64,000 nucleotides of DNA from Candidatus Woesearchaeota archaeon (GCA_043812195.1 JBDRML010000029.1:48263-112262), one strand, 5' to 3'. Positions 27,159-61,990 are shown, counted from the stretch's first letter. A program made the numbers and translations. The notes: a model not told the origin generated them from the sequence alone.

Positions 27159-27917
27159 TTGCCATACACCACAAAATCATTTATAAAGTTAAAAATCAAT
27201 GCATCAAACATGAATCTATCAGAAAGAGGAAAAAGGAATGTAAGAATAAGATGGAATAGAATACATCAAAAAGAGATTGATTATATAAGGAAAAATTTAG
27301 ATAAAACTTTTAATTTTAAATCTAGGTTATGTGGTTACTTAGCAGGAGATGGCAATATTCTTACTGCTAATAGCAAAACATGTACTCATTATACAATTCG
27401 TTTTTTCCCAGATCATTATTCACTAATTAAACCATTTAAAGAAGCGTTTATCAAAACATATAATAAAAATCCAAAAGTGAAAAAATTAAAAAACTATTAT
27501 TTTATAACTATTGATTCCAAACCAATAGTATATGATCTCTTGTCACTAGTTGAATTTGGTACTTCAAATTGGAGTATTCCAAATAAAATTTTAACCAATG
27601 ATAAAAATAAAATAGAATGGTTAAGAGCATTTTTTGATGCTGAAGCACATATTCATGAAAAATATATTAGAATTCAATCAGTTAATGGAAAAGGATTAAA
27701 ACAAGTAAAAGAATTATTAAACCAATTTTCTATTAATTCCAAAATTTATGAATACGTTCCAAAAAATAAAAAATGGAATAAGGTGTACATACTAAATATT
27801 TTAAGGAAAAAAGATAAAATAAATTATTTAAAATTAATAGGATTTAATCACACCATAAAGCTTAAAAAGTTAAATAAAAATCTTGATTTTGCCTTAAATA
27901 AAGCCGCGGTCGCGTAA
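27159..27917 (+). CDS. free-standing LAGLIDADG homing endonuclease (likely ATG start 27210), 3' end overlaps tRNA-Ser(GGA)
   Basis: LCGYLAGDG and WLRAFFDAEA; the TAA stop at 27915-27917 lies in the tRNA D-loop. Confidence 0.85.
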   Translation: MPYTTKSFIKLKINASNMNLSERGKRNVRIRWNRIHQKEIDYIRKNLDKTFNFKSRLCGYLAGDGNILTANSKTCTHYTIRFFPDHYSLIKPFKEAFIKTYNKNPKVKKLKNYYFITIDSKPIVYDLLSLVEFGTSNWSIPNKILTNDKNKIEWLRAFFDAEAHIHEKYIRIQSVNGKGLKQVKELLNQFSINSKIYEYVPKNKKWNKVYILNILRKKDKINYLKLIGFNHTIKLKKLNKNLDFALNKAAVA

Positions 27918-28020
27918 TCTGGTATCGCACAGATCCTTAAAAGAAATAAAATTTTTATGGAGTGTAAGCCTGGAAAGCCTGACCCTTTTGGGTGTCTGGG
28001 TTCAAATCCCAGTCGCGGCG
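27903..28020 (+). tRNA. tRNA-Ser(GGA) with a 35-nt BHB intron at 29/30 (27933-27967)
   Basis: Acceptor GCCGCGG/TCGCGGC plus G73. After splicing the anticodon arm is CAGGC-CTGGAAA-GCCTG. Long variable arm, T arm CTGGG-TTCAAAT-CCCAG. BHB helix GCAC/GTGT with bulges AG|A and AA|G. Confidence 0.9.
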
Positions 28021-28608
28021 CTCATACTATTAGGCAAACGCCACATAATTAAGAAAGTTTTAAATACTATTTTCAAGAAATATTTATATGGTTTTACCAA
28101 GAATAAATAAATTTGAAGATAAAAAGAAACTATATTCCTATATAATAAACAAATTTAGAAATTCTATGGTTATATTAGTTCACGGTTCTACTGCCAATAA
28201 AAAAATTAGAAACTATTCAGATTTTGATGTAGAAATTTATGGAAAAAATATTAAAAAACCATACTATGAAATTCTCTTTATTAAAGAAGCTCCAGTCTTG
28301 TTATCTGTTTATTTTTACAAATATAAATCAGGTAAAAAAACAATACCAAAAAAAGGAATAAAAGTTATCAAAGGGGATTTTAGTAATAATTTAGATGGTG
28401 GAATTACTCCAATATATGGTGAAGGAAAATATACAAGTAAAGAGAGGTTAAAAAGAGATTGTCAACTGGTAACTGATTTTATGTTTAAATATTTTAGGTC
28501 TAAGGATAAAACATATCTCAAATATGTACAAAAAAGAATTAAATAGGGTGGTAAGGGTAAGAAGTAATTAGCCCTTGCCTAATAATCCTGCTACCAAGTC
28601 GCGGCGCT
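28011..28608 (+). mobile_element. small att-like cassette: 12-bp duplication of the tRNA 3' end (28011-28022, 28597-28608) with 10-bp inner inverted repeats (28028-28037, 28575-28584)
   Basis: AGTCGCGGCGCT occurs twice; TATTAGGCAA and TTGCCTAATA are reverse complements. Confidence 0.55.
28088..28546 (+). CDS. nucleotidyltransferase-fold protein
   Basis: LVHGSTA......SDFDVE motif. Confidence 0.6.
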   Translation: MVLPRINKFEDKKKLYSYIINKFRNSMVILVHGSTANKKIRNYSDFDVEIYGKNIKKPYYEILFIKEAPVLLSVYFYKYKSGKKTIPKKGIKVIKGDFSNNLDGGITPIYGEGKYTSKERLKRDCQLVTDFMFKYFRSKDKTYLKYVQKRIK

Positions 28609-28650
28609 TATAATTTTACAAAAAAGAATTAATTTATAAAAAAGAAAAAG

Positions 28651-28671
28651 TCCTACCATTATTAGGTAGGA
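28651..28671 (-). terminator. hairpin followed by a T-tract, putative terminator of the minus-strand genes
   Basis: TCCTACC-7nt-GGTAGGA, followed on the minus strand by CTTTTCTTTTTT. Confidence 0.45.
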
Positions 28672-28686
28672 TTAATGAAATTATTT

Positions 28687-29538
28687 TTAATCTGTTCTTT
28701 TAATACATTCTATCTCTATAATACCATCATCATTTAATCCTTTAATGATATATTCTCTATAATGTTCTGTAAGAGATTCCATACTATGTTTTATATGTCT
28801 ATTTGAAAGAGGAATTATCATTCCTCCTTTTTTATCTTTATCTAAAGGAAAATAAGGACGGATTCCATTTGACCAAGTTCCATAAAAACTTCCAAGATTA
28901 ATAGCAGTATGATAAATAGGAGAATCTTCTCCTTCTTTAATAAGACTCCTAAATTCATTAGATGCTTTCCTTAATTTTTGTGCTTTTTCATGTGCTTTTT
29001 TATATGATTCATTAAATCTTGCAAAAGCCATATTTCCACACATACTTTCAACATTTTCTTCATCAGTAGATGTATATTTTATTTTACATTTTAATTGCCT
29101 ATCATCATCCGGATTAAGAAAATTTATCTTTGAAGAATAATCATTATTTAAATAATCTTCAAGAAATTGTTCTTGAATCTCTCCCAATTCTTTAGTAGCA
29201 TAAGCTAAAAAAACTATTTCTGCTGTTGCTTCTTGACAAATATGAATATTTCCATTATATCTTTCTCCTAATTTATGAATACTATCACAATCTCCAAGAC
29301 CTTCTTCTCTTCCCCTTTCATAAGTACTTGCAACAAGGTGAGATTCTAAAACCAATCTTTCCAAATCTAATTCGGAAATTTTTCTTATAGTTTTAATAGC
29401 TAACTGTTTGATTGACTCTCCATGTTGAAGATTTATTCTTTCAGCTACATATTCTTTTTGAGCATCTACAATTTGACTTACAAAAGGATCTGTCTTTGCA
29501 TCATAAATTTTTTGTATATATTGTTCTAATTAATCCAT
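28687..29538 (-). pseudogene. hypothetical protein with an in-frame TAA at codon 3 (ORF track calls only 28687-29364)
   Basis: ATG GAT TAA TTA GAA CAA... directly after the upstream gene's stop; the frame is then open through to 28687. Confidence 0.5.
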
Positions 29539-29539
29539 T

Positions 29540-30517: not shown

Positions 30518-30648
30518 TTTTTATTTACCTCCTATTTTTATGACTTTCATCATACAAAAGTAGTGACTTTTCAACTATATAAATACTCTCTCCCCTTAAG
30601 TGCGTAGTAATAGTAAAATTTATATATCTTATTAACTAAATTAAAAAG

Positions 30649-31401: not shown

Positions 31402-31477
31402 TTAAAAGTATAGCCTTTTATTACAAAAACTATTTAAACAGGAAAAATTAAATTAAAGAAAAGGAGGTGTAAACTAA

Positions 31478-31702
31478 ATGCCAAAAAAGAATAATATAAA
31501 ACCAGCAATGTCAGAAACTAAATCAAAAAAGACAAGTAGTTGCACATGTCATGGAAACGGGTTTACCTTTATTTTGGGAATAATAATCTTAATATTAGGT
31601 ATAACTTTATGGTTTCAGTGGTTAACTCTTGTACAAGTATTTGCAATAATATTTATTTTGATGGGTCTCAAAAAAATAATTTGGAAAAACAATTGCCACT
31701 AA
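31478..31702 (+). CDS. small two-TM membrane protein
   Basis: SD GGAGGTG and two hydrophobic helices. Confidence 0.6.
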   Translation: MPKKNNIKPAMSETKSKKTSSCTCHGNGFTFILGIIILILGITLWFQWLTLVQVFAIIFILMGLKKIIWKNNCH

Positions 31703-33409: not shown

Positions 33410-33410
33410 T

Positions 33411-33548: not shown

Positions 33549-33594
33549 TTTAGAAACCTCCTAAATTTATATAAAATTAAATACTATATAAATA

Positions 33595-41987: not shown

Positions 41988-42075
41988 CTATTCGACCATT
42001 CAAGTTAGAGTTGTCTAAGTTGTTCCAGTTGGAGTTAAGATTCAAGTTCCTGTTAAGGTTCAGCCTGGAAAGGCC
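41988..42075 (-). repeat. DGR template repeat (TR), 88 nt, 11 AAY codons, 29 adenines
   Basis: GGCCTTTCCAGGCTGAACCTTAACAGGAAC...AATGGTCGAATAG aligns without gaps to two VRs, with all mismatches at TR adenines. Confidence 0.95.
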
Positions 42076-42193
42076 ACCACTTCATTATTCTCATGAGATA
42101 CTAAATGTTGCAGTTGAATTTTATGTATCAACAGACTTGTAGCCTAGCCCTTAAGACCAGGAATTAGAATAGACAAGTATTAATTTTTAAAGT

Positions 42194-48805: not shown

Positions 48806-49233
48806 TTTGTATCTCCAACTTTTTCTCTTTTATCACCAATTCTTGTTTTATAGATTCTAGTAGGCTCACGCCATCTATAAAGACCACCAGAAGCCACATA
48901 TCTATTTAGTGCTACATCACCATTTTCCTTAGATGGTAAATTTTCAAAGTGTGTTTCTGTTTCTTCTACAGCTGCACTATTTATATCAGCTAGTCTAAGA
49001 TAAAGATTACTTCTATCAAGAGCCCCTTCCAAATCTTCCAAAACATTGATACCTCTAACTTCTCCCCAACTATGTATTGATGTGACTGTTCCTGCGCTCT
49101 TATTAGTTATAACATATTTACTTTCGCCAGGTCCAACATAAGCTAATTTTATAACAACAAACCCAAGTCTTTCAAGCTCTTCAATGTTTTCAAGGCATCT
49201 TTCACTTTCAAATATATTTTGTCCCGGTTTCAT
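48802..49233 (-). CDS. hypothetical protein
   Basis: First gene of the minus-strand run, preceded by the conserved promoter motif. Confidence 0.5.
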   Translation of the reverse strand: MKPGQNIFESERCLENIEELERLGFVVIKLAYVGPGESKYVITNKSAGTVTSIHSWGEVRGINVLEDLEGALDRSNLYLRLADINSAAVEETETHFENLPSKENGDVALNRYVASGGLYRWREPTRIYKTRIGDKREKVGDTK

Positions 49234-49294
49234 TTTTCTAAATTAGGCATACAATAAACCTTTATAAACCTTTCCATTTGTTGCCACTAACAAG

Positions 49295-50368
49295 TTACTT
49301 CATAAATTTAGGCAATAACTTCTCAGATTTCTTCCTATTTTTCCTAAATTCCTTCATAAATTCTAGAATTCTCTTAATAGTATAATCTTTCAACTCACCA
49401 GTTAACATCTTACCAGACTTATATTTCTTATAAATTTCATCTAATTTCTTATCATTTTCCTGAACAAAATACTTCAAATACATAAATGCCACATCAATAT
49501 CTGGATTTCCACCTTTTTTTCTATGCTCTTCGATAGTTTCCTGACCGCCAGAAAAAGCACTTTTAATCTTCTTTTTTATAACTTCATCACTATCACTAGT
49601 ATAAATAGCAGAAAACTCATCAGAAGCACTCATCTTTCCAGAACCTTTCAAACTAGGCATAAACTTACTCAACATACAACCAGGTTTAGTTAATTTCAAC
49701 TTATAAGCAACATCTCTACTCAATTTCACAAACACATCTTGATCAATTCCAATCAACACAAGAGAAGGCAACTTATATTTATAAGTCGGATATAAAATAT
49801 GCGCAGCTTGCATAGCAGGATAAAAACTCACACCAATATTTTTCTCATTAGTCAATCCCAATGCAGCTTTAACAGTTCCATAAGTCATAGCTTTAGAACA
49901 TTTAATACTTAAATTATACAAATCTTGATTCATATTTTCAAAATCAAATACAAACTCAGTTTTCTTAGGGTCAAAACCAAGAGCAATAATATCCAAAGCA
50001 TTATCATGAGCTAATTTTTTAGTTTCTTCTAAACTCAATTTATTATCAAATAAAAACTTTTCATCATCAGAAAAAGGAATAAACACATAACATCCAAACT
50101 TATCCTGCATTTCCTTAACAAACTTAAATAACATCAAATGAGCTAAATGCATATGAGCAGAAGGTCCTCTTCCAGAAACAATAGCAAACCTCTTACCAAC
50201 TAATTTATCCAAATCTCTATGAGCAAAAAAATAATCTCTCTCAACTAATTTCAAACCTTTAAACTTTTTCTTTAGTCTTTCATCTATAAAAGACGCACCA
50301 AACTCCTTTACAACTTTATTATAGTTGATTTCTCCTTCCACTTTATATGGTGTAATTTCCATAATCAA
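49295..50368 (-). CDS. trpS: tryptophan--tRNA ligase (archaeal/eukaryotic type)
   Basis: FFAHRD, SGRGPS..MHLAH, SDDEKF, GIDQD, KMSAS, AFSGG.....EHR..GGNP..D. Confidence 0.93.
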   Translation of the reverse strand: MIMEITPYKVEGEINYNKVVKEFGASFIDERLKKKFKGLKLVERDYFFAHRDLDKLVGKRFAIVSGRGPSAHMHLAHLMLFKFVKEMQDKFGCYVFIPFSDDEKFLFDNKLSLEETKKLAHDNALDIIALGFDPKKTEFVFDFENMNQDLYNLSIKCSKAMTYGTVKAALGLTNEKNIGVSFYPAMQAAHILYPTYKYKLPSLVLIGIDQDVFVKLSRDVAYKLKLTKPGCMLSKFMPSLKGSGKMSASDEFSAIYTSDSDEVIKKKIKSAFSGGQETIEEHRKKGGNPDIDVAFMYLKYFVQENDKKLDEIYKKYKSGKMLTGELKDYTIKRILEFMKEFRKNRKKSEKLLPKFMK

Positions 50369-50427
50369 AATTAAGAATCAGCTTATATAAAGATTTCTAA
50401 TAGATCACTTAATCCACCCATTAAAAC

Positions 50428-50472
50428 AAAGGTCGACAAGGTCGACAACCACCATCGAAAGTAGTTTATAAA
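50428..50472 (+). promoter_or_regulatory. conserved upstream motif plus TATA box of the LAGLIDADG/tRNA-Trp unit
   Basis: AAAGGTCGACAAGGTCGACAACCACCA followed by GAAAGTAGTTTATAAA; 26/27 identical to 62028-62054 (minus). Confidence 0.7.
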
Positions 50473-50492
50473 CAAAAATCAATATACTAAAG

Positions 50493-51233
50493 ATGAGATA
50501 TAAACTAGATAAGAGAAATGGTTTAATATTACCAAAAAATAAATCAACACTCTTAGCCGAAATAGTTGGAGCCATATTTGGAGATGGATATATGTCAGAC
50601 AGAAAAAAAGATGGATTCTCTTTAAAACTGTTTGGAAACTTAAAAAAGGATTGTAGATACATATTATTCTTAAAAAATAGTATAAAAAATATCTTTAATT
50701 TAAAAAATATCAAAATATCGAGAAATCAACAAAATAATTGTATTAAACTTTGTGTTTATTCAAGAACATTATGTGAATTTCTACATGAAGAATTACAAGT
50801 GCCATATTCACCAAAATTAAATCTCAAAATTCCAAGTTGGATAATAAATAACAAAGAATATTTTATTTATTTCATCAGAGGTTTATTTGATACTGATGGT
50901 TGTGTAACAATTCAAAAAGATAAGAAGTACAGATATCATGTGATAAAAATTTCTTGCAAAAAAAGTTTAGCTCTTTCATTAAAGGAAAATTTATTAAAAA
51001 TAAACATAAAATCATTTATATGTAAAAAGGGGTATAGAGATAATTACGATTTAATAGTAAAAAGAAAGAAAGAGGTAATCAAATGGGTAAAAATCATAGG
51101 TTCGAACAATTATAGAAACATAGAAAAATTAAAAGAAATAAAAGACAAGATTTATATAGAGAAAATAGATACTATTCCTTATAAAGCTGAGACCGGGACC
51201 ATAGCTCAATCTGGTAGAGTGACCGATTCTTGA
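50493..51233 (+). CDS. free-standing LAGLIDADG homing endonuclease, 3' end overlaps tRNA-Trp
   Basis: LAEIVGAIFGDG and FIRGLFDTDG; the TGA stop at 51231-51233 lies within tRNA intron 1. Confidence 0.88.
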   Translation: MRYKLDKRNGLILPKNKSTLLAEIVGAIFGDGYMSDRKKDGFSLKLFGNLKKDCRYILFLKNSIKNIFNLKNIKISRNQQNNCIKLCVYSRTLCEFLHEELQVPYSPKLNLKIPSWIINNKEYFIYFIRGLFDTDGCVTIQKDKKYRYHVIKISCKKSLALSLKENLLKINIKSFICKKGYRDNYDLIVKRKKEVIKWVKIIGSNNYRNIEKLKEIKDKIYIEKIDTIPYKAETGTIAQSGRVTDS

Positions 51234-51318
51234 AAAAGAAGTCAATGCTCCAGACCGGTTGATACTTAACAGTTATCTGTAAGTAGCCGAAATGGGGGTT
51301 CAAATCCCTCTGGTCTCA
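51195..51318 (+). tRNA. tRNA-Trp(CCA) with two BHB introns: 30/31 (51226-51246, 21 nt) and 45/46 (51262-51291, 30 nt)
   Basis: Acceptor GGGACCA/TGGTCTC. Spliced anticodon arm ACCGG-CTCCAGA-CCGGT, T arm GGGGG-TTCAAAT-CCCTC. BHB helices TGAC/GTCA and CGGT/GCCG with 3-nt bulges. Confidence 0.87.
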
Positions 51319-51325
51319 CTCATCT

Positions 51326-51592
51326 TTATTCTTTAAAAAATCTAGTATTCTCATACAAAATAAACAACAAAATAAACATTAATAGTCCAAGAATTACAAA
51401 TTCCATATTTTTACTAACAACTTCTCTCTCATTTGGAGGTTCTTTAGCAAACTCACATTCAACTACTTCCTCACAAAAAGGCGAAGGCAAACAACATGTC
51501 TGTTCAAAAATAGCAAACCCACTCAAACCACTTCCTAATAAAAATAATCCAATACCAGCAATCACCCATATAATAGCACTTTTCAGATTCAT
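51326..51592 (-). CDS. small two-TM protein with a Cys-rich loop
   Basis: SGFAI..TCC.....C.....C between two hydrophobic helices. Confidence 0.55.
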   Translation of the reverse strand: MNLKSAIIWVIAGIGLFLLGSGLSGFAIFEQTCCLPSPFCEEVVECEFAKEPPNEREVVSKNMEFVILGLLMFILLFILYENTRFFKE

Positions 51593-51632
51593 ATTTATCT
51601 AATAAAAATACAACTATAAAAATCTTTTTATA

Positions 51633-52016
51633 TTATTTTTTAGTCAAATTATAAGCACGTTCAATCATAGTTTTTCTAAAATCTAATCCATCCAATATTC
51701 CATGTCTATAAAAATCAGCACGCTCACCATTTAATTCAGGTGAGCTAGAACCTGTATTTTTACTAAATACTTCACTAAATCCAGCTAAGTACAACATAAA
51801 ATCTTTTGTCATTCGTTTTGTAGGAATATATGGTGTAACACTATCAACAACAAAATCATTAGGATCTTCAATATTCTGTCCTACTATATTAAAAGGTGAT
51901 TGTAAAATAATATTATAATTAGGATATTTATTCTTAAATAAATCTCTAAAACTATTTCGTAATTCTTCTATAGATTTACTTTCTCCCCCCACAAAATTTT
52001 TATCATCTAAACTCAT
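51633..52016 (-). CDS. hypothetical protein
   Basis: 127-aa ORF with an upstream TATA box. Confidence 0.5.
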   Translation of the reverse strand: MSLDDKNFVGGESKSIEELRNSFRDLFKNKYPNYNIILQSPFNIVGQNIEDPNDFVVDSVTPYIPTKRMTKDFMLYLAGFSEVFSKNTGSSSPELNGERADFYRHGILDGLDFRKTMIERAYNLTKK

Positions 52017-52121
52017 ATTACCAAAACCTTTTGTTTATAGTATCTTTATAAAGATTTGTTTTATCTATTTCGATAAATCTTTTCGCAAACTATTTAAACC
52101 TCTTTTCTAAAAAATCTAATA

Positions 52122-52916
52122 ATGAAACACAAATTACCAATCATTTTAATTATCCTAACATTATTCTTAGCAACCCAAATAATAGGTTTATTCATAACAC
52201 AAGAATACCTAACACAAGCACAATTACCATTAGGAATAGAAAGACCAGAATTCGAAACAACAGGAAGCTATTTTTCATTATTAGTTGGTTTAGTTATTGT
52301 AATAGCATTAGCATTATTTATAATAAAGGTAGGAGCAATGAAAATCTGGCGTATCTGGTTCTTCTTAGCCTCAGCATATCTTTTAACAATAGCATTCGGT
52401 GCATTCTTCGCAGGAACATATGCTCTAATAATAGCCCTATTATTTACAACTATAAGGTTCATACGACCAAGTGTTATAATACATAACTTTTCAGAATTAT
52501 TTGTCTATAGTGGAATAGCAGCAATATTCGTACCAATAATGAGTTTCCTAGCTGTTAGTATACTATTAATTGTAATTTCAATCTATGATATGATAGCAGT
52601 TTGGAAAACAAAACACATGATTAAGATAGCAGAATTTCAAGCACAATCTAAAATGTTTGCAGGTTTATTTATCCCATATAAACAAGGCAAAAAACAAGCA
52701 GTAGCAATCCTTGGTGGGGGAGATATTGGCTTCACAATGTTATTCGCAGGTGTAGTTATGAAAACTTCTGGAATGTTAGATGGAATAATAGTTGCAGTTT
52801 GTGTAACATTAGCACTAGCATCCTTATTATTATTCGCAAAAAATAAATATTATCCAGCTATGCCCTACCTTACAGCAGGCTGCGCAATTGGATATTTAAT
52901 TACACTTCTTGTATAA
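52122..52916 (+). CDS. presenilin / signal-peptide-peptidase family (A22) intramembrane aspartyl protease
   Basis: ISIYDMIAVW.TKHM, LGGGD and PAMP motifs; multi-TM. Confidence 0.9.
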   Translation: MKHKLPIILIILTLFLATQIIGLFITQEYLTQAQLPLGIERPEFETTGSYFSLLVGLVIVIALALFIIKVGAMKIWRIWFFLASAYLLTIAFGAFFAGTYALIIALLFTTIRFIRPSVIIHNFSELFVYSGIAAIFVPIMSFLAVSILLIVISIYDMIAVWKTKHMIKIAEFQAQSKMFAGLFIPYKQGKKQAVAILGGGDIGFTMLFAGVVMKTSGMLDGIIVAVCVTLALASLLLFAKNKYYPAMPYLTAGCAIGYLITLLV

Positions 52917-53043
52917 TCTCTTGTTTTTTAATTAATGTCTGTTTAAATTCAACACAACCACAAAAACAATTCATATATGTTGGAGCTTTTTCATTTTCAG
53001 CAGTATAAATTGCTCCACATTCTTTACATTTTATTTCTAACAT
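52900..53043 (-). CDS. small zinc-ribbon protein (47 aa), not in ORF track
   Basis: MLEIKCKECGAIY...NCFCGCVEF. Confidence 0.55.
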   Translation of the reverse strand: MLEIKCKECGAIYTAENEKAPTYMNCFCGCVEFKQTLIKKQEIIQEV

Positions 53044-53405
53044 TTTTCATCTCCAAAATTTATTTCTAATTGATATGTTTCTTTTTCAGGAAGAACATAT
53101 AACGAATTTTGTGTCCCAGAACCGTTAAGTCTATTAAAAGCAGGAATTAGAACATTTCTAATTCTTTCTTCTGTCACAGGCATTATACCATGCACATCAG
53201 CAAAAGGCAAAATAAAGATATCATCAAGTTGATAATCTGGATTAAACGGATTCTCAGAAACATCCGCAACTACAGGTTCCAAAACAATTCTCTCAAAATT
53301 TCCTTCCTTAAGAAATCCATTAAAACTAGAACCACCCTTATCAAAAACCCTAACATATCTATTCAAGCATTCTTTATATGTAAATTTAGCCATTTTAGTA
53401 AACAA
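53037..53405 (-). CDS. hypothetical protein (possibly Sm-like fold)
   Basis: LNRYVRV......FNGFL pattern; coupled to its neighbours. Confidence 0.45.
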   Translation of the reverse strand: MFTKMAKFTYKECLNRYVRVFDKGGSSFNGFLKEGNFERIVLEPVVADVSENPFNPDYQLDDIFILPFADVHGIMPVTEERIRNVLIPAFNRLNGSGTQNSLYVLPEKETYQLEINFGDEKC

Positions 53406-53868
53406 CTCCTATCAAAAGATATCTCATTTGTTCAAATCTAATTTTTCCAGGATCTGTAAAAGTCGAATTGTCTCCTTTAGTAACAGCATACCAACCTTCA
53501 TCATCCATTCCAATATCAATAACTCTATGAACAACTAATTTATCAGTCCAGTCTGGCTCATAAGTCACAATATCTCCAATCTGAATATCATCTGTAGAGC
53601 CAGGAATTATCTGCAATCCATTAGCACCAGCATCAATAACAGGGTCCATTGAATTACTATCAGCGTATCTAGACCATTTAGCATTATCTACAAAAATAAC
53701 AATTCTATCTTCATAAATAACAATCTGTCTTTCTTTTATAATATCTGAAGGCGAAACAAGCTCTCTAGGCATAACATTAATAGGATTTTCATAATCTCCA
53801 CTATAAACACTATTAGTAAGCCATCCTAGTAAAAATACCAATATCACCACAAATATTAACGATTTCAT
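53395..53868 (-). CDS. signal peptidase I (S26) family protein
   Basis: SNSMDP, GDIVTY, VVHRV, TKGDN. Confidence 0.8.
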   Translation of the reverse strand: MKSLIFVVILVFLLGWLTNSVYSGDYENPINVMPRELVSPSDIIKERQIVIYEDRIVIFVDNAKWSRYADSNSMDPVIDAGANGLQIIPGSTDDIQIGDIVTYEPDWTDKLVVHRVIDIGMDDEGWYAVTKGDNSTFTDPGKIRFEQMRYLLIGVVY

Positions 53869-53952
53869 ACATTAAACTAGTGTTTTTTCATTTATAAACC
53901 TTTCTATTTGTTATTATTTGTAAGTAGTTAAAATTAAAAAGAAATAAGAAAA

Positions 53953-54324
53953 TTACCATCCAACAAGTTTTTCTATTCTTGCTCTCTCTATTCTTCTATC
54001 ATATTCATCTGGTATGCTTTCAAGATGTCTCTCATAATTAATACCTTCTAATGTTGAATCAGGAAATACAAGTATATTATCACTTTTTAAAACTTCATAT
54101 GTTCTAACAATTTTTAAATCATCAGTATATCTAAAAATTTTCATACTATCTGCTATCCTTATCAGATTAGCTCCAATTATAATACCACCAGCAATTCCAA
54201 TTACAGCTCCACCTGTAGCACAACAAAATCCAATATCTTCTTTGCTTACCATTTTTGCCCCCGTAATATTAAATATAATAAAAAGAAGAAAAGCTATTCC
54301 TTTATAAATCTTCTTAATTATCAT
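53953..54324 (-). CDS. hypothetical membrane protein (start possibly internal)
   Basis: Gly-rich TM segment. Confidence 0.45.
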   Translation of the reverse strand: MIIKKIYKGIAFLLFIIFNITGAKMVSKEDIGFCCATGGAVIGIAGGIIIGANLIRIADSMKIFRYTDDLKIVRTYEVLKSDNILVFPDSTLEGINYERHLESIPDEYDRRIERARIEKLVGW

Positions 54325-54351
54325 AACTTTAAAGTAATATCTTTCCTAAAC

Positions 54352-54849
54352 TTACCCCCTCAACAAAAACTTAGCAAACAAAGCTCCAGCCACAAATGGA
54401 AAGAATATAAAATCATAACTCACAATAAAAGGCTCAAACAACAACAAAATAAAAGGAACCCCAAAAAATATCAAATTAGAAACAACAAACATAGTCATTT
54501 TCTTACCATATTCCAAAGCTCCATAAGTCAATCCCAATAAAAATATCACACCCACAAAAATATAAGCAAATGTCTGACTATATGCAAAAGACAAAAATAA
54601 AGCAAAACCTAAATACAAATAAACTCTACTTATTCCCATAAACACCATAAAACCAGCAACAAAAGATATAATCAAAAATATAAAACTATCCCAAGTCTCA
54701 TATAACAATAGAATAACCAAAACCAACAATAAAACTCTCTCTAACAAATGAAAATACTTTTTACCAGACTTCAGCTCATCTTTTGTAAAATAAGCCAAAA
54801 TCAGTCCAATAATCAATCCCCCAAAAGCTATTGCTGATTCAATAAGCAT
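54352..54849 (-). CDS. hypothetical multi-pass membrane protein
   Basis: Highly hydrophobic; G..LA..TKDELKSGKKYF. Confidence 0.6.
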   Translation of the reverse strand: MLIESAIAFGGLIIGLILAYFTKDELKSGKKYFHLLERVLLLVLVILLLYETWDSFIFLIISFVAGFMVFMGISRVYLYLGFALFLSFAYSQTFAYIFVGVIFLLGLTYGALEYGKKMTMFVVSNLIFFGVPFILLLFEPFIVSYDFIFFPFVAGALFAKFLLRG

Positions 54850-54890
54850 AAAAATATTAGGTTAAATCAGATATAAATAGTTTTTGTTAA

Positions 54891-55916
54891 TTTTAATCCA
54901 ATATCCGCTCTTTTTTAACAAAAAATAATCTTTCAAAAAACTTATAAAAACGTGCAGATTCTCATTTTTTATACAAAATTTACAGCTCTCAATATCTTTG
55001 AGAGCCATATTTTATGAAAATGGAAAGTCAAAAAAAATTATCTGAGATTATAATTGATTTAGAACTTAGTAGTTTATGTAATCTTTCTTGTACATTTTGC
55101 CCCAGAAGTAAGATAAAAAGATCAAAACATTTCATAGACTTAAACACTATAGATAGTTTAATCCCTATAATTGATGAAAAACATATTATCTGGTTTTCTG
55201 GAATGGGAGAACCTTTCCTACATCCAAATCTTCCAGAAATAATAAGAAGAATAAAAAAAAGTGGGGCCAAAGTTTATACTAATACTAATGCTTCAGCACC
55301 AAGGTATAAAGATACACTTGACATTGCTATCAAAGAAGGATTAGATTATGTTAATATAAGTATATATGGACACGATAATGAATCCTATAAAACTAATACT
55401 AGAAAAAATGTTTTTGATAGAGTTTTAGATAATGTAAAATTTTTACAAAATTTAAAAGTACCATATAGAATATCATATGTAGCTTCTTCAGAAGTTAATA
55501 AAAATGAATTAAGGAAAAAATTAGAAGATGTTTTTGGAACAGATAAAATTAGATTGCCTCAACTGCACCACAGAAGCTTTTCATCGCGAGAACAATCAAT
55601 ATCGGGGTGTGCTTTGGCACAATTTTATTTATTTATCTCCTCTGATGGAAATGTTTTTTCATGTGTAAATGATGTTAGTGGAGAAAATAATTTTGGAAAA
55701 GATATATACACTGCTGCAGGGGAAAAAAGAAAAGAATATCCCTTTAAGATTTGTGTGTATTGTGATGAACCCCACAGAACCATACCTTATAAAGAAGATT
55801 ATTTTCAAAGGGTTTTTGATTTAAGTTCTAGACAGAAATAATGTTTTAAGCCAAAATCAAATCAATAATTAACTCTATAAAAACTTTTAATCCAATAATC
55901 TCTCTTTTTTAACAAA
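54891..55916. repeat. 32-bp imperfect direct repeat (54891-54922 and 55885-55916, 29/32) flanking the radical SAM gene
   Basis: TTTTAATCCAATA[TCCG/ATCT]CTCTTTTTTAACAAA; the second copy is the 3' end of the 55887-56336 gene. Confidence 0.7.
55014..55841 (+). CDS. radical SAM protein with SPASM/twitch-like C-terminus
   Basis: CNLSCTFC, GMGEPFLHP, TN, C...DGNVFSC...C..C. Confidence 0.88.
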   Translation: MKMESQKKLSEIIIDLELSSLCNLSCTFCPRSKIKRSKHFIDLNTIDSLIPIIDEKHIIWFSGMGEPFLHPNLPEIIRRIKKSGAKVYTNTNASAPRYKDTLDIAIKEGLDYVNISIYGHDNESYKTNTRKNVFDRVLDNVKFLQNLKVPYRISYVASSEVNKNELRKKLEDVFGTDKIRLPQLHHRSFSSREQSISGCALAQFYLFISSDGNVFSCVNDVSGENNFGKDIYTAAGEKRKEYPFKICVYCDEPHRTIPYKEDYFQRVFDLSSRQK

Positions 55917-56336
55917 TAAGCTTCTAACAAACCAGTACATAGAATACAATTCAAAGGAAAATGGAAAATATCCCAAATACCCCAAAACAGACATTTCAAA
56001 TATCTTAAAAAAACCAACAAAAGGAATATCACAGGTCCATTTAGATATTGCCCAATAATTCCAAAATTCCCATAAAAAACCCAAAATAATTCCAGCTAAA
56101 AGCAAAGATAAAGGCACAGCAAGTTTTTTATTTTTAATATGTCCTAAAATACTTGGTTGTTTATTTAAGTAATTCAAAGGATCTAAAATAAAAAAGAAAC
56201 CAAGCAAAACCAATGGAAAGGTAAATTTTGGCAAAAGTAAGGGAACAACAAAAAATACCACCCCAATCATTATCATAACTTTCAAGAAACTCTTGCTTAT
56301 CTTATATTTTTTTTGTAATTTAATCTTATCAAACAC
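55887..56336 (-). CDS. membrane protein, probably an N-terminally truncated fragment
   Basis: GFLWEFWNYWA..KW, IFEM..LGYLGY.PF; weak TTG start. Confidence 0.5.
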   Translation of the reverse strand: MFDKIKLQKKYKISKSFLKVMIMIGVVFFVVPLLLPKFTFPLVLLGFFFILDPLNYLNKQPSILGHIKNKKLAVPLSLLLAGIILGFLWEFWNYWAISKWTCDIPFVGFFKIFEMSVLGYLGYFPFSFELYSMYWFVRSLFVKKERLLD

Positions 56337-56664
56337 AGCACAACAACAAAGCCGAAAAAAATATAAATCTATTTTCCATTACAAGTTTATGCAAAATAAA
56401 TATTTAGGAGTTGTACATACCAAAAACGTAGGAAATATTACATTTTTTACTGTAGGCATATATTCTTATCAAGACCATAAGACTCAAGATTATGAACAAG
56501 TGGCCGAATTTGGAAGAGCTATTTCTGTACTTTGTAGATATATTTCAAAAGCACCCGAATTAATAGAACAAGAGATATCTACAGGACTTCTAAGTTCCGA
56601 CCAAGAAGAAGCTATCAAATCAGTAAGAAAACTATTTCTTGAACAAAGAGTATTAACACAGTAG
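56293..56664 (+). CDS. hypothetical protein (start uncertain)
   Basis: ORF only. Confidence 0.35.
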   Translation: MLILYFFCNLILSNTAQQQSRKKYKSIFHYKFMQNKYLGVVHTKNVGNITFFTVGIYSYQDHKTQDYEQVAEFGRAISVLCRYISKAPELIEQEISTGLLSSDQEEAIKSVRKLFLEQRVLTQ

Positions 56665-56738
56665 CTTAAAATAAAAAAGCTCGACAAACACCAGCACAAT
56701 CTTTAAAAGCGTTTATTTTAGTCTAAAACTTCTTTAAA

Positions 56739-59327
56739 ATGATAAATTTTCAAAAAACACCATACAAAGATGAAGAAATTTTTGCTAGTCTTAACAAGCT
56801 TGTTTCAACTTGGTTTAAAAATAAATTTGGAGAATTCTCATTACCACAAAAATACGCAGTAATGAACATACACAACAAAGAAAACACATTAATAACAGCA
56901 CCAACAGGTTCAGGTAAAACCCTATCAGCATTTCTAGCTATAATAAATGAACTAACTAACCTATCAAAAGATGAAAAATTAGAAGATAGAGTATATTGTC
57001 TATACATTTCTCCCTTAAAAGCTCTCAATTATGATATACAAGTTAATCTAAAAGAGCCATTAAAAGAATTAGCAACTATGGCAGGACACGATTTAGGAAT
57101 AAGAGTAGCTGTTAGAACAGGAGACACAACACAAAGAGAAAGAGCACAAATGTTAAACACCCCACCACATATTCTCATCACAACACCTGAGAGTTTAGCC
57201 TTAATGTTAACAGCTCCAAAGTTCAGAGATCATCTATCAAAAGTCCAATGGGCTATCATAGATGAAGTTCATGCTTTAGCAGTAAACAAAAGAGGAGTAG
57301 ATTTATCTTTAAGTTTGGAAAGACTTCAAGAATTCGCAGGAAATTACACAAGAATAGGATTATCAGCAACTATTTCACCTTTAGAAGAAGTAGCAAAATA
57401 TCTAGTAGGATTAGAAAAAGGAGAATACAGATCATGTAAAATTGTAGACGCAAGTTTCCTTAAAAAATTAGATTTAAAAGTCATAAGCCCAGTAGAAAAT
57501 ATAATACAAACTACAGAAACAGACTTGCATGATAGTTTATACAACATGTTAGATAATTTAATACAAGAACACAAAACCACTTTAATATTCACAAACACAA
57601 GAGCAGGAACAGAAAGGGTAATCCATCATCTAAAAACTAAATTCCCAGAAAAATACATAGAAAACATAGACGCACACCATAGTTCATTATCAAAATCACA
57701 CAGATTTGACACAGAAGAAAGACTGAGAAAGGGAAAATTGAAAGTAGTAGTTACGTCTTCAAGTTTAGAACTAGGTGTAGATATAGGTTATATTGACTTA
57801 GTTATTCAAATGGGTTCTCCAAAATCAGTAACACGTGCACTTCAAAGATTTGGAAGAGCACAACATAAATTAAAAGGAAAATCAAAAGGAAGATTCGTAG
57901 TTTTAGACAGAGATGATTTAGTAGAATGTTCTGTAATGTTAAAAAACGCAGTAGAAGGAAAAATAGACAAAATAGATATCCCAAAAAATTGTTTAGATGT
58001 TCTAGCCCAACATATTTACGGAGAAGCAATAGTAGAATACAGAAACCCAGATGAATTATTCGATTCAATAAAACAATCTTATTGTTATCAAGATCTTCAA
58101 AGAAGTCAATATGAAGATATTCTAAGTTATTTAGCAGGAGAATATGTCGCATTAGAAGAAAGACATGTTTATGCAAAAATATTTTACAATAGAGAAGATA
58201 ATTTAATAGGTAAAAAAGGAAAACTAGCAAGAGTATTATACAGCACAAACATAGGGACAATTCCAGATGAATCTCATTTATTAGTTAAAATAAAAGACCA
58301 AGTAATAGGAACCTTAGATGAAGGCTTTTTAGAAAGATTAAAGCCAGGAGATGTTTTTATTCTAGGCGGAGCAACTTACCAATTCCAATACGCAAGAGGC
58401 ATGACAGTTCAAGTTAGAGCCACACCAGAAAAACTCCCGACAGTTCCAAGCTGGTTTTCAGATATGCTTCCTTTAAGTTATGATTTAGCTATGGAAATTC
58501 AAAAATTTAGATTATTAATGGAAGAAAAATTCAATTCTAAAAAATCCAAAGAAGAAATTATAAAATTTATAGATGAATATCTTTATGTAGATGAAAACGC
58601 TGCAAATTCAATCTATGAATATTTCCGAGAACAATATCTATATGCAGAAATTCCACACAAAGAAAAAATACTAATAGAATTCTATAAAGGATATGCAGAT
58701 AACAAATATGTAATATTCCACACTTTATTCGGAAGAAGAGTTAATGATGCTTTATCAAGAGCCATAGCATACGAAATATCAAGACTAACAAAAAAGGGAG
58801 TTTCAATAGCACTAACAGACAACGGATTCTATCTGACATCTACAGAAGCAAAAAAGATACAAGCTCTAAGAGGATTCAATAATGTTACTCAAGATAATAT
58901 AAAAGATATTTTAATCAAAGCTATAGACAACACAGAAATATTAAAAAGAAGATTCAGACACTGTGCGGGAAGAGCCTTAATGATCTTAAGAAATTATAAA
59001 GGTGTAAGAAAACAAGCAGGCAGACAACAAGTAAGCGCCATGATTTTATTAAAAGCAGTTAAAAGAATTTCAGATAAATTCCCAATTTTAGAAGAAGCCA
59101 GAAGAGAAGTAATAGAAGATCTAATGGACATTAAAAATGCAAAAAAAGTTCTAAAAGATTTAGATATGGGAAGAATTAAAGTCAAAACCATATCAACAGA
59201 CATTCCATCACCTTTTGCATTAAACTTAATTGCAAGAGGTTTCATGGATGTAATCAAAATGGAGGATAAATTAGAATTTATAAGAAGAATGCATAAAGCT
59301 GTATTGAAAAGAATTGAAAACAACTAA
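56739..59327 (+). CDS. lhr: Lhr-like ATP-dependent SF2 helicase
   Basis: APTGSGKT, SPLKAL, TTPESL, DEVH, SAT, HHSSLS, SSLELGVD, QRFGR, IGTIPDE. Confidence 0.93.
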   Translation: MINFQKTPYKDEEIFASLNKLVSTWFKNKFGEFSLPQKYAVMNIHNKENTLITAPTGSGKTLSAFLAIINELTNLSKDEKLEDRVYCLYISPLKALNYDIQVNLKEPLKELATMAGHDLGIRVAVRTGDTTQRERAQMLNTPPHILITTPESLALMLTAPKFRDHLSKVQWAIIDEVHALAVNKRGVDLSLSLERLQEFAGNYTRIGLSATISPLEEVAKYLVGLEKGEYRSCKIVDASFLKKLDLKVISPVENIIQTTETDLHDSLYNMLDNLIQEHKTTLIFTNTRAGTERVIHHLKTKFPEKYIENIDAHHSSLSKSHRFDTEERLRKGKLKVVVTSSSLELGVDIGYIDLVIQMGSPKSVTRALQRFGRAQHKLKGKSKGRFVVLDRDDLVECSVMLKNAVEGKIDKIDIPKNCLDVLAQHIYGEAIVEYRNPDELFDSIKQSYCYQDLQRSQYEDILSYLAGEYVALEERHVYAKIFYNREDNLIGKKGKLARVLYSTNIGTIPDESHLLVKIKDQVIGTLDEGFLERLKPGDVFILGGATYQFQYARGMTVQVRATPEKLPTVPSWFSDMLPLSYDLAMEIQKFRLLMEEKFNSKKSKEEIIKFIDEYLYVDENAANSIYEYFREQYLYAEIPHKEKILIEFYKGYADNKYVIFHTLFGRRVNDALSRAIAYEISRLTKKGVSIALTDNGFYLTSTEAKKIQALRGFNNVTQDNIKDILIKAIDNTEILKRRFRHCAGRALMILRNYKGVRKQAGRQQVSAMILLKAVKRISDKFPILEEARREVIEDLMDIKNAKKVLKDLDMGRIKVKTISTDIPSPFALNLIARGFMDVIKMEDKLEFIRRMHKAVLKRIENN

Positions 59328-59403
59328 AAAGTAGTAACAAATAGAAAGGCTTATAAAGATAAATTGAATAACTTTTAATAAATTATGAGTAAATGGAAAG
59401 AAA

Positions 59404-59817
59404 ATGGGAAGTATAAAAAGCACTGTGGGATTGTATATTGCAATTTTTGGTTTGACAGCACTTGTAGCCAGAGGATGTAACATGGCTTGGAATAATAAAA
59501 ATGTTGAAGAATTAGGAAGGCACACAGTATCTAATGCCACAAAAATAAGCGGACATGAAGAATTTACATTATATCCAGATGGTTCTTCTGATTTAAAAAT
59601 ATATCCTGGTATTATGGGACATAGATATATGTCAAGTAAGTTATATCAAGATATAGATGGAGATCAATTAGTTGATAGAATTAGAATAAACGGACCAGAG
59701 TGGCAATTTAATAGGCTTAAGGATGTTTTAGTTAGATCAACTGATTATTCTGATTACAAAGATGAATTTGATAAAGCAGATAGAAAAATCAGAAAGAAAG
59801 CAACATCATTAAAATAA
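59404..59817 (+). CDS. hypothetical secreted protein inserted between lhr and the metallophosphoesterase
   Basis: N-terminal TM, DIDGDQLVD motif and its own conserved promoter at 59331-59358. Confidence 0.55.
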   Translation: MGSIKSTVGLYIAIFGLTALVARGCNMAWNNKNVEELGRHTVSNATKISGHEEFTLYPDGSSDLKIYPGIMGHRYMSSKLYQDIDGDQLVDRIRINGPEWQFNRLKDVLVRSTDYSDYKDEFDKADRKIRKKATSLK

Positions 59818-59897
59818 ATCTAAAGCATAATATTTTTCCTTATTTTTTACAAGGTTTACATAAAATATATATAAAAACTTAACATTATTCTAAAATC

Positions 59898-60599
59898 ATG
59901 GTTAATATAACTAAAAATATAGAAATAAAAGATTTAGCATTATATCTTAAAAAAGAAAATACTTTAATAATTTCAGATCCTCAGTTAGGTTATGAAGAAA
60001 ATTTACTAAATAAAGGTGTATTAATTCCATTCAATCAATTAAAAGATTTAAAAGAAAGATTAAATAAAATTTTCAAAAATCTAAAATTTAAAAATATAAT
60101 CATAAATGGAGATCTAAAACACGAATTCGGAAAAATATCAAGACAAGAATGGAAAGAAGTAACAGAAATAATAGAATTCCTATCAAGTTTTTGTGAAAAA
60201 TTAATTATAATAAAAGGAAACCATGATATAGTATTAAACTCAATAACAAAGAAAAATAATATTGAAGTAGTTGAAAATTATAAAATAGGAAAAACATTCA
60301 TAACTCACGGACATAAAATCCCAGAAATTCCAAAAGATATAAACACAATAATAATAGGACATGAACATCCTGCAATTTCAATAACTGATGGTGAAGTAAA
60401 AGAAATATACAAATGCTATCTAAAATATAAATTCAAAAACAAAACATTAATAATCCAACCTTCATCATTTTTATTAAATGAAGGAACAGATATTCTAACA
60501 TATGAAACTCATTCTCCTTTCATTAAAGATTTCGAAAATTTTGAAGTTTGGATTGTAGCAGACAAAATATATTACTTTGGTAAAGTTAAAAACCTATAA
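59898..60599 (+). CDS. Lhr-associated metallophosphoesterase
   Basis: ISD.QLGYE, NGDLKH, GNHD, THGH, GHEHP. Confidence 0.87.
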   Translation: MVNITKNIEIKDLALYLKKENTLIISDPQLGYEENLLNKGVLIPFNQLKDLKERLNKIFKNLKFKNIIINGDLKHEFGKISRQEWKEVTEIIEFLSSFCEKLIIIKGNHDIVLNSITKKNNIEVVENYKIGKTFITHGHKIPEIPKDINTIIIGHEHPAISITDGEVKEIYKCYLKYKFKNKTLIIQPSSFLLNEGTDILTYETHSPFIKDFENFEVWIVADKIYYFGKVKNL

Positions 60600-60616
60600 C
60601 ATTAGTTTTCATAAAG

Positions 60617-60961
60617 TTAGAGCTCCAAACTAATTTTAATAGCAATCTCAACTTTTTTCATCATATATTTATCCAATTTCCCAACTTTTTTAATAATTCT
60701 AGATTTATCAATTGTCCTTATTTGATTTAAAAGAACTGTAGAATCTTTCTTTAATTTAGAACTCGCTTTTGGCAACTCAACATTAGTAGGATATTCTTTA
60801 TTATAAATCTTTGAAGTTATAGGAGCAATAATTGTAGTGGGGCTATATTGATTAGAAACATCATTTTGTATTATTAAAACCGGTCTGATTTTTCCTTGTT
60901 CAGAACCTCTAACTGGGTCTAAATTTACCAAACAAATTTCTCCCCTTTTTACAGCTACCAT
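60617..60961 (-). CDS. mazF: MazF/PemK family endoribonuclease toxin
   Basis: KRGEI..VNLDP..GSEQGKIRPVLIIQND..N, PITS, QIRTIDKSR. Confidence 0.93.
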   Translation of the reverse strand: MVAVKRGEICLVNLDPVRGSEQGKIRPVLIIQNDVSNQYSPTTIIAPITSKIYNKEYPTNVELPKASSKLKKDSTVLLNQIRTIDKSRIIKKVGKLDKYMMKKVEIAIKISLEL

Positions 60962-61188
60962 TCTATATCAATTTCAGAATCAATATGCTCGAATTCTTTA
61001 GTTATTCTAAGCGAATCCTTGGCCATTGTTTTACACCCTTCAATAAGCAATTCTCTCTGCAACCTTTTTTGTTTTTCATTGTTATTCATCAACTTTACGA
61101 TTACCTCTTCGTATGTTTCACCAGGATCACATTTCATATTTTCAAGGGCCATTTTCACACCTTCATTTAATTGTATTGTAGTTACCAT
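60955..61188 (-). CDS. cognate antitoxin (RHH-like)
   Basis: MVTTIQL...K..LE.MK....ETYEEVI; overlaps the toxin start. Confidence 0.75.
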   Translation of the reverse strand: MVTTIQLNEGVKMALENMKCDPGETYEEVIVKLMNNNEKQKRLQRELLIEGCKTMAKDSLRITKEFEHIDSEIDIEW

Positions 61189-61192
61189 GCTA

Positions 61193-61211
61193 ACTATAGT
61201 TAAACTATAGT
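61193..61211. promoter_or_regulatory. putative TA autorepression operator
   Basis: ACTATAGT-TAA-ACTATAGT (two palindromic 8-mers) between the TATA box and the antitoxin start. Confidence 0.5.
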
Positions 61212-61237
61212 ATATAAACTTTTTGTTTAGAAAAGAG

Positions 61238-61341
61238 CGCCGAGACTGGGATTTGAACCCAGGAGTCCCGAAGGACCTAGATTAGCAATCTAGTGCACTA
61301 ACCAGGCTATGCGTTCGAGGATTTATTCTATCTATCTCGGC
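61238..61341 (-). tRNA. tRNA-Ser(GCT) with a 20-nt BHB intron at 8/9 (61314-61333)
   Basis: Acceptor GCCGAGA/TCTCGGC plus G73, anticodon arm CTAGA-TTGCTAA-TCTAG, variable arm GTCC-TTCG-GGAC, T arm CTGGG-TTCAAAT-CCCAG. BHB helix CGAG/CTCG with bulges AT|A and AA|C. Confidence 0.88.
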
Positions 61342-61990
61342 AAAAAGCCTTCTCGGTAACACTCTGTATTATGCTCTTTTTCTTAGAATGAGATGATTGT
61401 ATTAAGTTTATAAATCTTTCAGTTCCTTTTCTTTTCAACAAAATTTCATAAGCATCCTTTTTACCAATTCTTTTATATGGCCCATTTAAAGAACATTCCA
61501 TCTTCAAATCCTCCAAAATTTTCTTTAATTGTTTCAAACCATTTAAATTTATAGAACCAAATCTAACTCTAGTATATTTGCCTTGATTTAAATCAATAGA
61601 TCCATCTCCATCAAAATAACCTTGAATAAACCCAAGCTTTACAGCATCATTTCCTTCCATAACAAATTTAGGAACATACCATTTATTATTTCCCAATACA
61701 ACATATCTAAGAATATCATCTATAACATATTTTTTAACTATACACACTCTATAAGTTCTATTATTACTAAATATTATATTAGGTTTATAACCATAAACAA
61801 AATTCAATAATTCTTGAAATTTTTGTAAAAGAAGTATATTTGTATTGGCAAATTCCATTATTCTTTTATTTTGTACTCGATTATAGTGTTTATTCCTTCT
61901 TTTATCAAATTCTATATATCTACTAACATATTCTCTATAATTTCCATCAGAACACAATAACCCAATTATGTTAGCTTTTTTTGACAACAT
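61328..61990 (-). CDS. free-standing LAGLIDADG homing endonuclease, 3' end overlaps tRNA-Ser(GCT)
   Basis: IIGLLCSDG and FIQGYFDGDG; the TAG stop at 61330-61328 lies within the tRNA intron. Confidence 0.88.
   Translation of the reverse strand: MLSKKANIIGLLCSDGNYREYVSRYIEFDKRRNKHYNRVQNKRIMEFANTNILLLQKFQELLNFVYGYKPNIIFSNNRTYRVCIVKKYVIDDILRYVVLGNNKWYVPKFVMEGNDAVKLGFIQGYFDGDGSIDLNQGKYTRVRFGSINLNGLKQLKKILEDLKMECSLNGPYKRIGKKDAYEILLKRKGTERFINLIQSSHSKKKSIIQSVTEKAFCRDR

Follow-up and report, generated by a model that had tools for sequence, protein, structure and literature searches.

We analyzed a 64-kb stretch of DNA (hereafter, the window) from the genome of a Candidatus Woesearchaeota archaeon, in which three tRNA genes interrupted by non-canonical bulge-helix-bulge (BHB) introns are each preceded by a free-standing LAGLIDADG endonuclease gene. 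Window features are numbered from the first letter of the window; genomes are designated G (G000 being the present one), contigs C and loci L. G000 comprises 0.94 Mb on 45 contigs with about 29% G+C, and the public runs containing window sequence carry the label groundwater metagenome; the run that matches best may be the source sample. Rfam identified exactly three tRNAs in the window, each just 3' of one LAGLIDADG open reading frame (ORF) on the same strand. Endonuclease genes were detected with Pfam PF14528 (LAGLIDADG_3) at a cut-off of 22.5 bits, which was exceeded by all three window ORFs: gene 1 (27210..27917, +; 55.3 bits), gene 2 (50493..51233, +; 36.0 bits) and gene 3 (61328..61990, -; 53.1 bits). 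The mechanical ORF of gene 1 begins at a TTG at 27159; since this codon precedes the TATA box at 27180-27187, the ATG at 27210 is the likely start.

LAGLIDADG endonucleases are defined by two motifs within one chain, both of which end in a catalytic acidic residue (Asp or Glu). The motif pairs are LCGYLAGDG and LRAFFDAEA in endonuclease 1, IVGAIFGDG and IRGLFDTDG in endonuclease 2, and IIGLLCSDG and IQGYFDGDG in endonuclease 3, and the catalytic acidic residue is retained in both motifs of all three enzymes. Endonuclease 1 was modeled with AlphaFold (predicted local distance difference test score, pLDDT, 94.8). The best structural matches of this model in the Protein Data Bank (PDB), as found by Foldseek, were PI-PfuI and I-DmoI (probability 1.00; E 5e-12 to 4e-10; template modeling score up to 0.8 on the target), while WhiA appeared among the lower-ranked matches. 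The model predicts for endonuclease 1 the two-domain alpha-beta fold of solved LAGLIDADG enzymes. A PDB sequence search with endonuclease 2 returned just one weak, spurious match to an aminopeptidase. Endonuclease 1 has 63 homologues, of which those with assigned names belong to Woesearchaeota or Nanoarchaeota.

Gene 1 is followed by tRNA-Ser(GGA) (27903..28020, +; Rfam 34.7 bits), which has a 35-nt intron between positions 29 and 30 (27933-27967). Gene 2 is followed by tRNA-Trp(CCA) (51195..51318, +; 41.6 bits), with a 21-nt intron at 30/31 (51226-51246) and a 30-nt intron at about 45/46 (51262-51291), and gene 3 by tRNA-Ser(GCT) (61238..61341, -), with a 19-nt intron at 8/9 (61333-61315). 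The last of these matched the Rfam model only partially (32.5 bits, model positions 10-63, window 61312-61246); the 5' strand of its acceptor stem, GCCGAGA, pairs with TCTCGGC. In minimum free energy folds, the four introns form a 3-nt bulge, a helix of 3-4 bp and a second 3-nt bulge, and the splice sites fall within these two bulges; the central helix of the Trp 30/31 intron has 3 bp, and the Trp 45/46 intron folds as a clean 3-4-3. Intron-less Ser-GGA orthologues from relatives align contiguously to query positions 1-29 and 64-118. Run without its intron mode, ARAGORN detected none of the window's tRNAs, as all three contain introns, and with -i it gave wrong anticodons at non-canonical introns; we therefore wrote a custom tRNA parser and located non-canonical introns with this parser and by eye, so that their positions may be off by 1-2 bases. 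G000 encodes a splicing endonuclease (one PF01974 match of 93.8 bits in a 182-aa frame, G000:C3:1706-1966). A group I intron reading was also considered and dropped; no Rfam group I match lies in the window, and in the tRNA-Lys gene described below the ORF occupies nearly the whole intron.

A first-pass annotation of this DNA had described three LAGLIDADG ORFs, each with a TATA box and each running into a same-strand tRNA by 14-39 nt. All three are present, and the overlaps are 15 nt for gene 1, 39 nt for gene 2 and 14 nt for gene 3. The non-canonical introns that it had placed in every window tRNA were recovered at the same positions with the parser and by eye, and its statement that the endonuclease gene lies outside the intron holds for 3/3 loci in the window and for seven in G000. 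In two of the three loci the stop codon of the endonuclease gene is located within a tRNA intron (TGA 51231-51233 in the Trp 30/31 intron and TAG 61330-61328 in the Ser-GCT 8/9 intron). From about 27840 onward, the tail of gene 1 spans the tRNA's own promoter region. When gene 2 is aligned with its relative L121, homology stops at about residue 208, some 38 codons before the stop codon, and these last codons cover the tRNA-Trp promoter and the 5' part of the tRNA. The overlap is thus host sequence that the ORF reads through, not a functional fusion. Gene 3 reads positions 1-8 of tRNA-Ser(GCT) and terminates inside the 8/9 intron. At locus L008 (G012:C6:52773-52873 region), where the stop-supplying 30/31 intron is absent, the ORF reads through the entire tRNA-Leu(TAG) and ends 21 nt past it.

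Each cassette has its own promoter. That of gene 1 (27157..27187, +) comprises a one-copy motif variant, GCTTGCCATACACCAC (27157-27172), and the TATA box TTTATAAA (27180-27187). In the promoter of gene 2 (50431..50472, +), a direct-repeat motif, GGTCGACAAGGTCGACAACCACC (50431-50453), with two matches in the window and none in 100 shuffles, precedes a TATA box at 50465-50472, and in that of gene 3 (62012..62051, -) the motif GGTCGACAAGGTTGACAACCACC (62051-62029) precedes a TATA box at 62019-62012. This layout of motif and TATA box is common to other LAGLIDADG cassettes. The direct-repeat motif, GGTCGACAA GGTYGACAA CCACC, sits ~10 nt 5' of the TATA box. Its sites are at window 50431-50453 (+), 62029-62051 (-) and 56672-56739 (+), and on contigs C1, C3, C17, C21, C24, C25, C26, C31 and C45 of G000. 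It was found before nearly all free-standing LAGLIDADG genes, as well as before a Lhr-type helicase (window 56739 onward, with a WH_Lhr domain), a second superfamily 2 (SF2) helicase (on C21) and several unnamed ORFs; motif variants with GCTTGCCA repeats lie upstream of endonuclease genes in relatives. The motif may mark a shared regulon, perhaps one of DNA repair. We also considered that the motif might be a degenerate piece of a tRNA or the end of a cassette, and dropped this reading, as motif and TATA box also precede non-endonuclease genes, including the two SF2 helicases. A metatranscriptome contig of 156 nt covers window 51052-51205, reaching from the 3' end of gene 2 to nt 11 of tRNA-Trp; this bridge is short and may stem from DNA carry-over, and lends no support to co-transcription.

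Comparison with relatives demonstrated that the cassette is an optional insertion. The divergent neighbors glmS and tRNA-Ser(GGA) are separated by 52-95 nt in at least nine relatives without the endonuclease and by 793 nt here; similarly, the gap between the tryptophanyl-tRNA synthetase gene (TrpRS) and tRNA-Trp is 97-112 nt in relatives and 826 nt here. Since relatives lacking the gene keep a spacer of 52-112 nt at these conserved loci, the cassette represents an optional insertion of ~0.7 kb. Of eight upstream ORFs inspected at endonuclease-free loci, none encodes a LAGLIDADG protein (0/8). On the left side the TATA box of the neighboring gene is retained, the window cassettes end about 60-75 nt 5' of the tRNA, and at the right junction the tRNA's own promoter is retained within the ORF tail; the cassette is inserted between the promoter of the neighboring gene and that of the tRNA. 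We had considered that the left TATA box might be a displaced tRNA promoter; this was abandoned in favor of the neighbor's promoter, as endonuclease-free alleles show two back-to-back TATA boxes. The TrpRS gene (window 49295-50368, -) adjoins tRNA-Trp here and in at least nine relatives (including L065, L071, L073 and L076-L080), in either divergent or tandem orientation.

The same comparison bears on the introns. Among Ser-GGA genes without an endonuclease, 14/17 were intron-less and 3/17 (in G013, G017 and G036) had the 29/30 intron, while both genes with an endonuclease (in G000 and G026) had it. For tRNA-Trp, 12/13 genes without an endonuclease were intron-less and one (in G036) carried a homologous 30/31 intron; the only gene with an endonuclease has the 30/31 intron. 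At the Ser-GGA junction, the carrier and intron-less alleles agree at 23 of 24 nt of exon context, as counted by eye; hence the intron is the main local difference. The tRNA-Trp of G000 matches that of L062 (G036, another family) in the anticodon arm and the ends of the 30/31 intron, while its acceptor and T arms resemble those of family mates; judged by eye, it looks like a gene-conversion mosaic.

Next, we surveyed the tRNA genes of G000 by comparing 1.3 kb on both sides of 33 of them with 73 endonucleases. Seven tRNAs had a same-strand LAGLIDADG gene directly 5': Ser-GGA, Trp-CCA, Ser-GCT, Pro-TGG, Cys-GCA, Glu-TTC and Ser-TGA. Non-canonical introns were present in 7/7 of these tRNAs and in 4/25 of the others (one-sided Fisher p 1e-4), the remainder of the 25 comprising nine with canonical introns only and 12 without introns. 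Two further genomes were fully censused. In G013, a single contig, a non-canonical intron was found in 4/4 tRNAs with an upstream endonuclease and in 6/32 others (p 0.004); in G012 the corresponding fractions were 5/11 and 1/22 (p 0.01), and of the 11 endonuclease-flanked tRNAs seven had an intron of any kind and four had none. The association between upstream LAGLIDADG genes and non-canonical introns, which the first-pass annotation had proposed to test, was thus positive in all three fully censused genomes. Adjacency itself is far from random: for the about 15 small LAGLIDADG ORFs of G000, ~0.04 adjacencies are expected by chance and seven were observed (P about 1e-14).

PF14528 is present in 19 of 21 genomes (G000 and 20 relatives). 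G000 has matches at 26 places, 13 of which are in frames shorter than 450 aa and the rest in frames longer than 1000 aa. Domains of the latter kind lie within about nine frames of 1068-1500 aa (e.g., window 14172-14375, +) and are presumably inteins in large host proteins. We curated 60 small-frame loci of relatives, out of 65 among the matches listed. In 29 of these a same-strand tRNA follows directly; in three the endonuclease lies just behind the tRNA, in three it converges on a tRNA on the opposite strand, in two it lies among duplicated tRNA pieces, and in 23, which mostly belong to a longer class of 300-430 aa, no tRNA is nearby. The arrangement of TATA box, ORF and overlapping same-strand tRNA, thought at first to be fixed, is therefore constant at the three window loci but not in relatives, where downstream, convergent and in-intron layouts also occur. 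At L020 (G009:C31) the cassette is flanked by a repeat of 9 nt from the 3' end of tRNA-Tyr; at L036 (G009:C33) two copies of a tRNA 5' part flank the endonuclease gene, whose ORF starts in the first copy; and at L019 (G006:C20) a complete tRNA-Thr stands on one side of the endonuclease gene and an isolated tRNA 3' half on the other, while a 5' fragment lies farther upstream. These arrangements are signs of insertion into tRNA genes.

The cassettes are patchily distributed and subject to decay. A clear orthologue of endonuclease 3 occurs just once among 60 relatives; relatives of endonuclease 2 were found at one locus in genome contigs and one in metagenome contigs, and none of the 13 relatives whose tRNA-Trp was parsed showed an endonuclease upstream of it. 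A decayed copy lies on contig C16 of G000, upstream of tRNA-Ser(TGA) (62538-62652, -); it is 54% identical to the L057 endonuclease and has two in-frame stops. Its tRNA carries a 29/30 intron with a BHB fold that is homologous to that of Ser-GGA in the window. A remnant of 32 aa persists beside Ser-GCT in G012. Contigs of four public runs covered window 49000-63000 in fragments, none of which bridged a cassette or an intron. Elsewhere in the window, Rfam gave a borderline match to RT-16 RNA (42055-42161, -), which scored 51.3 bits, the gathering score being 50, and lacks a large internal part of the model.

Endonuclease phylogeny provided a further line of evidence. Well-supported clades correspond to Leu-TAG, Leu-TAA, Glu, Tyr, Ser and Trp, and each of 1000 label shuffles required more changes in tRNA identity and in intron-position class than the observed tree, a test that kinship inflates. 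A given endonuclease lineage stays with a single tRNA species or class and a single intron position; a comparison of phylogeny with isotype and intron position had been proposed in the first-pass annotation. Endonuclease 3 (Ser-GCT) is sister to L209 (Leu-TAA, G042; support 97), and both partner tRNAs have an 8/9 intron; L209 reads positions 1-8 of Leu-TAA in the same frame as endonuclease 3 and stops within the 8/9 intron, which likewise folds as a BHB. A second clade (support 96) unites an endonuclease inside a Lys-TTT intron, one after Asn-GTT and those before two Ile-GAT genes, and all four tRNAs have a 30/31 intron. The Lys-TTT member is in G000 itself (G000:C29:46198-46923), ~1.3 kb before the window, where a 211-aa LAGLIDADG ORF nearly fills a 30/31 intron of ~650 nt, the layout of classical intron-encoded endonucleases but within a tRNA gene. 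Endonuclease 2 clades with L121 (support 98), and a relative with 40% identity, in a metagenome-assembled genome labeled Methanosarcinales, converges on a multi-intron tRNA-Trp.

We favor, with moderate confidence, the explanation that these loci are free-standing LAGLIDADG homing cassettes, each made up of its own promoter and a two-domain enzyme of ~210-250 aa, that target the tRNA locus beside which they reside and co-convert a linked intron, which in turn spares the carrier. From the sequences we infer cleavage, immunity and co-conversion as follows. The enzyme would cut the cognate tRNA gene in cassette-free genomes, and repair of the break would copy the cassette together with the adjoining 5' part of the tRNA, including the intron. 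Where an intron is present, it would split the recognition site, so that the carrier is spared, as in collaborative homing; intron-less carriers would be spared otherwise, e.g., by stem substitutions. Upon decay of the endonuclease, the intron would be left behind as an orphan. The ORF itself runs on over the tRNA promoter and into the tRNA until it meets a stop codon, often in the first intron. The intron probably serves to break the site, a role that fits the data without being universal. The system itself is real, and it is probably a new form of free-standing or collaborative homing.

Several observations weigh against this explanation, above all against an obligatory role for the intron. 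The tRNA censuses recover 33-36 genes per genome and leave ~10 per genome unseen; if all of these were intron-bearing and endonuclease-free, the association would no longer be significant in G012 (p 0.38) but would remain so in G000 (p 0.004), and related genomes are non-independent samples. Of the 29 partner tRNAs in relatives, 14 have non-canonical introns, five have canonical introns only and ten have none; thus, an intron is frequent but not obligatory beside an endonuclease. The earlier claim that the intron accompanies the cassette therefore stands for Ser-GGA (2/2) and Trp (1/1) but fails as a rule, as tight clades are mixed as well: near-identical endonucleases lie beside Leu-TAG with (L014) and without (L008) a 30/31 intron, and the Leu-TAA (L011 vs L030) and Glu-TTC (G000 vs L021) clades contain both intron-bearing and intron-less partners. 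Conversely, non-canonical introns without an endonuclease within 1.3 kb occur in four tRNAs of G000, six of G013 and one of G012. Judged by eye, the presence of an intron showed no clear separation by the distance from the conserved end of the enzyme to the tRNA start. In one alternative, the cassettes home to tRNA loci while the introns are irrelevant to immunity, the target being destroyed by the insertion or by base changes and the introns being co-converted passengers or joining the cassettes at recombination-prone tRNA loci. Intron-less carriers are common (10/29 in relatives and 4/11 in G012), and the intact, nearly identical endonuclease of L008 persists without the 30/31 intron of L014 and L015, its Leu-TAG differing from theirs by compensatory changes at pairs 27:43 and 28:42. 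In some pairs (e.g., L007) the conserved end of the enzyme reaches tRNA position +1, so that insertion itself could break a site spanning the 5' edge of the tRNA, and convergent and downstream layouts exist. We nevertheless consider this alternative rather unlikely. The window cassettes end well short of the tRNA and leave its promoter intact, and insertion therefore leaves the window tRNAs untouched. Moreover, the rare 8/9 position recurs with one endonuclease lineage beside two different tRNAs, and a single lineage is associated with the 30/31 position in Lys, Asn and Ile alike, which exceeds what loose linkage predicts.

The Lys-TTT gene of G000 raises another alternative, namely that the short introns are stumps of former endonuclease-bearing BHB introns, or that the free-standing genes are en route into an intron, in which case the pairing would be a historical relic. 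The ORF that fills this intron has as its nearest kin free-standing copies beside tRNAs with short 30/31 introns. However, the free-standing genes are located upstream of exon 1, outside the intron, and have a conserved promoter of their own, and no leftover 5' exon was found upstream of the three window cassettes. We regard this history as improbable; it is also compatible with homing by free-standing cassettes. Still less credible is that the LAGLIDADG proteins have been domesticated, for instance as a maturase-like helper in the splicing or folding of the interrupted pre-tRNA or as a WhiA-like DNA-binding regulator of the neighboring tRNA, and are not mobile nucleases. The tight, lineage-specific link to one tRNA, the likely co-transcription with it and the appearance of WhiA among the lower-ranked structural matches would fit such a role. 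Against it, all three enzymes retain the catalytic acidic residues in both motifs, most relatives lack the genes and have tRNAs that function all the same, decayed copies are found next to intact tRNAs, and many partner tRNAs are intron-less and so offer nothing to help. We give this last alternative very little weight.

The homing cassettes that we propose resemble several known systems in part. Collaborative homing is known from cyanophage S-PM2, where the endonuclease F-CphI acts with a group I intron of psbA (PMC6083498, citing Zeng et al. 2009), and trans homing by the T4 mobE/I-TevIII pair is related (PMC2790892). As in F-CphI/psbA, the endonuclease gene is located outside the intron and adjoins the intron-bearing gene, and the carrier allele has the intron while most endonuclease-free alleles are intron-less. 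In contrast, the enzyme here belongs to the LAGLIDADG family and not to the Endo VII or HNH types, the element resides in a cellular archaeon and not in a phage, the gene is a tRNA gene, and the intron is a protein-spliced BHB element of 19-35 nt and not a ribozyme. In addition, a single genome contains many lineages in parallel, some carriers lack the intron, and cleavage is a prediction from sequence. With the archaeal rRNA BHB intron enzymes I-DmoI and I-Tsp061I and the intein PI-PfuI, the enzymes share the fold (endonuclease 1) and the two-motif monomer, and, as with I-DmoI and I-Tsp061I, one G000 copy (tRNA-Lys) lies inside a BHB intron. Unlike these three, the window genes are free-standing, have their own promoter, lie outside the spliced element and neighbor a tRNA gene and not an rRNA gene.

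SegB is a free-standing endonuclease that acts in a tRNA gene cluster of T4-type phages. Intronless homing, as defined for the free-standing endonuclease genes of these phages (PMC6083498), likewise involves an optional endonuclease between conserved genes and beside tRNAs, which would spread by co-conversion of the flanks; the present system differs in the enzyme family, the domain of life and the one-to-one pairing of a lineage with a tRNA species and an intron position. Finally, archaeal plasmids and viruses integrate at tRNA genes, and Randau and Soll put forward the idea that introns protect tRNA genes (PMC3293823, PMC4090602, PMC4033280). Here too a mobile element is located at a tRNA gene, the intron is proposed to be protective, and duplicated tRNA ends occur at L020 and L036; however, there is no integrase, and the association is positive, the intron occurring with the element, which is the opposite of what host defense predicts. 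In the text available from archaeal tRNA-intron reviews and an archaeal group I intron paper, and in literature searches whose coverage left out most subscription journals, we came upon no account of archaeal tRNA genes with adjacent endonuclease genes.

The available text of a 2014 review describes the transposition mechanism of archaeal tRNA introns as 'still unknown' (PMC4090602). Free-standing LAGLIDADG genes may, as we suggest tentatively, drive this mobility, in that a lineage would carry its intron position between tRNA species (8/9 in Ser-GCT and Leu-TAA; 30/31 in Lys, Asn and Ile) and the intron would outlast the decayed gene. This would answer how such introns are gained and moved, and many orphan non-canonical tRNA introns in DPANN archaea, and perhaps elsewhere among the archaea, would mark sites where an endonuclease once resided. 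The locus type ties non-canonical tRNA introns to a known drive at the DNA level, an adjacent homing endonuclease, and the cassettes are a possible source of natural LAGLIDADG enzymes with tRNA-gene specificities. If the proposed mechanism is true, collaborative homing would extend from the group I introns of phages to the protein-spliced introns of cellular organisms.

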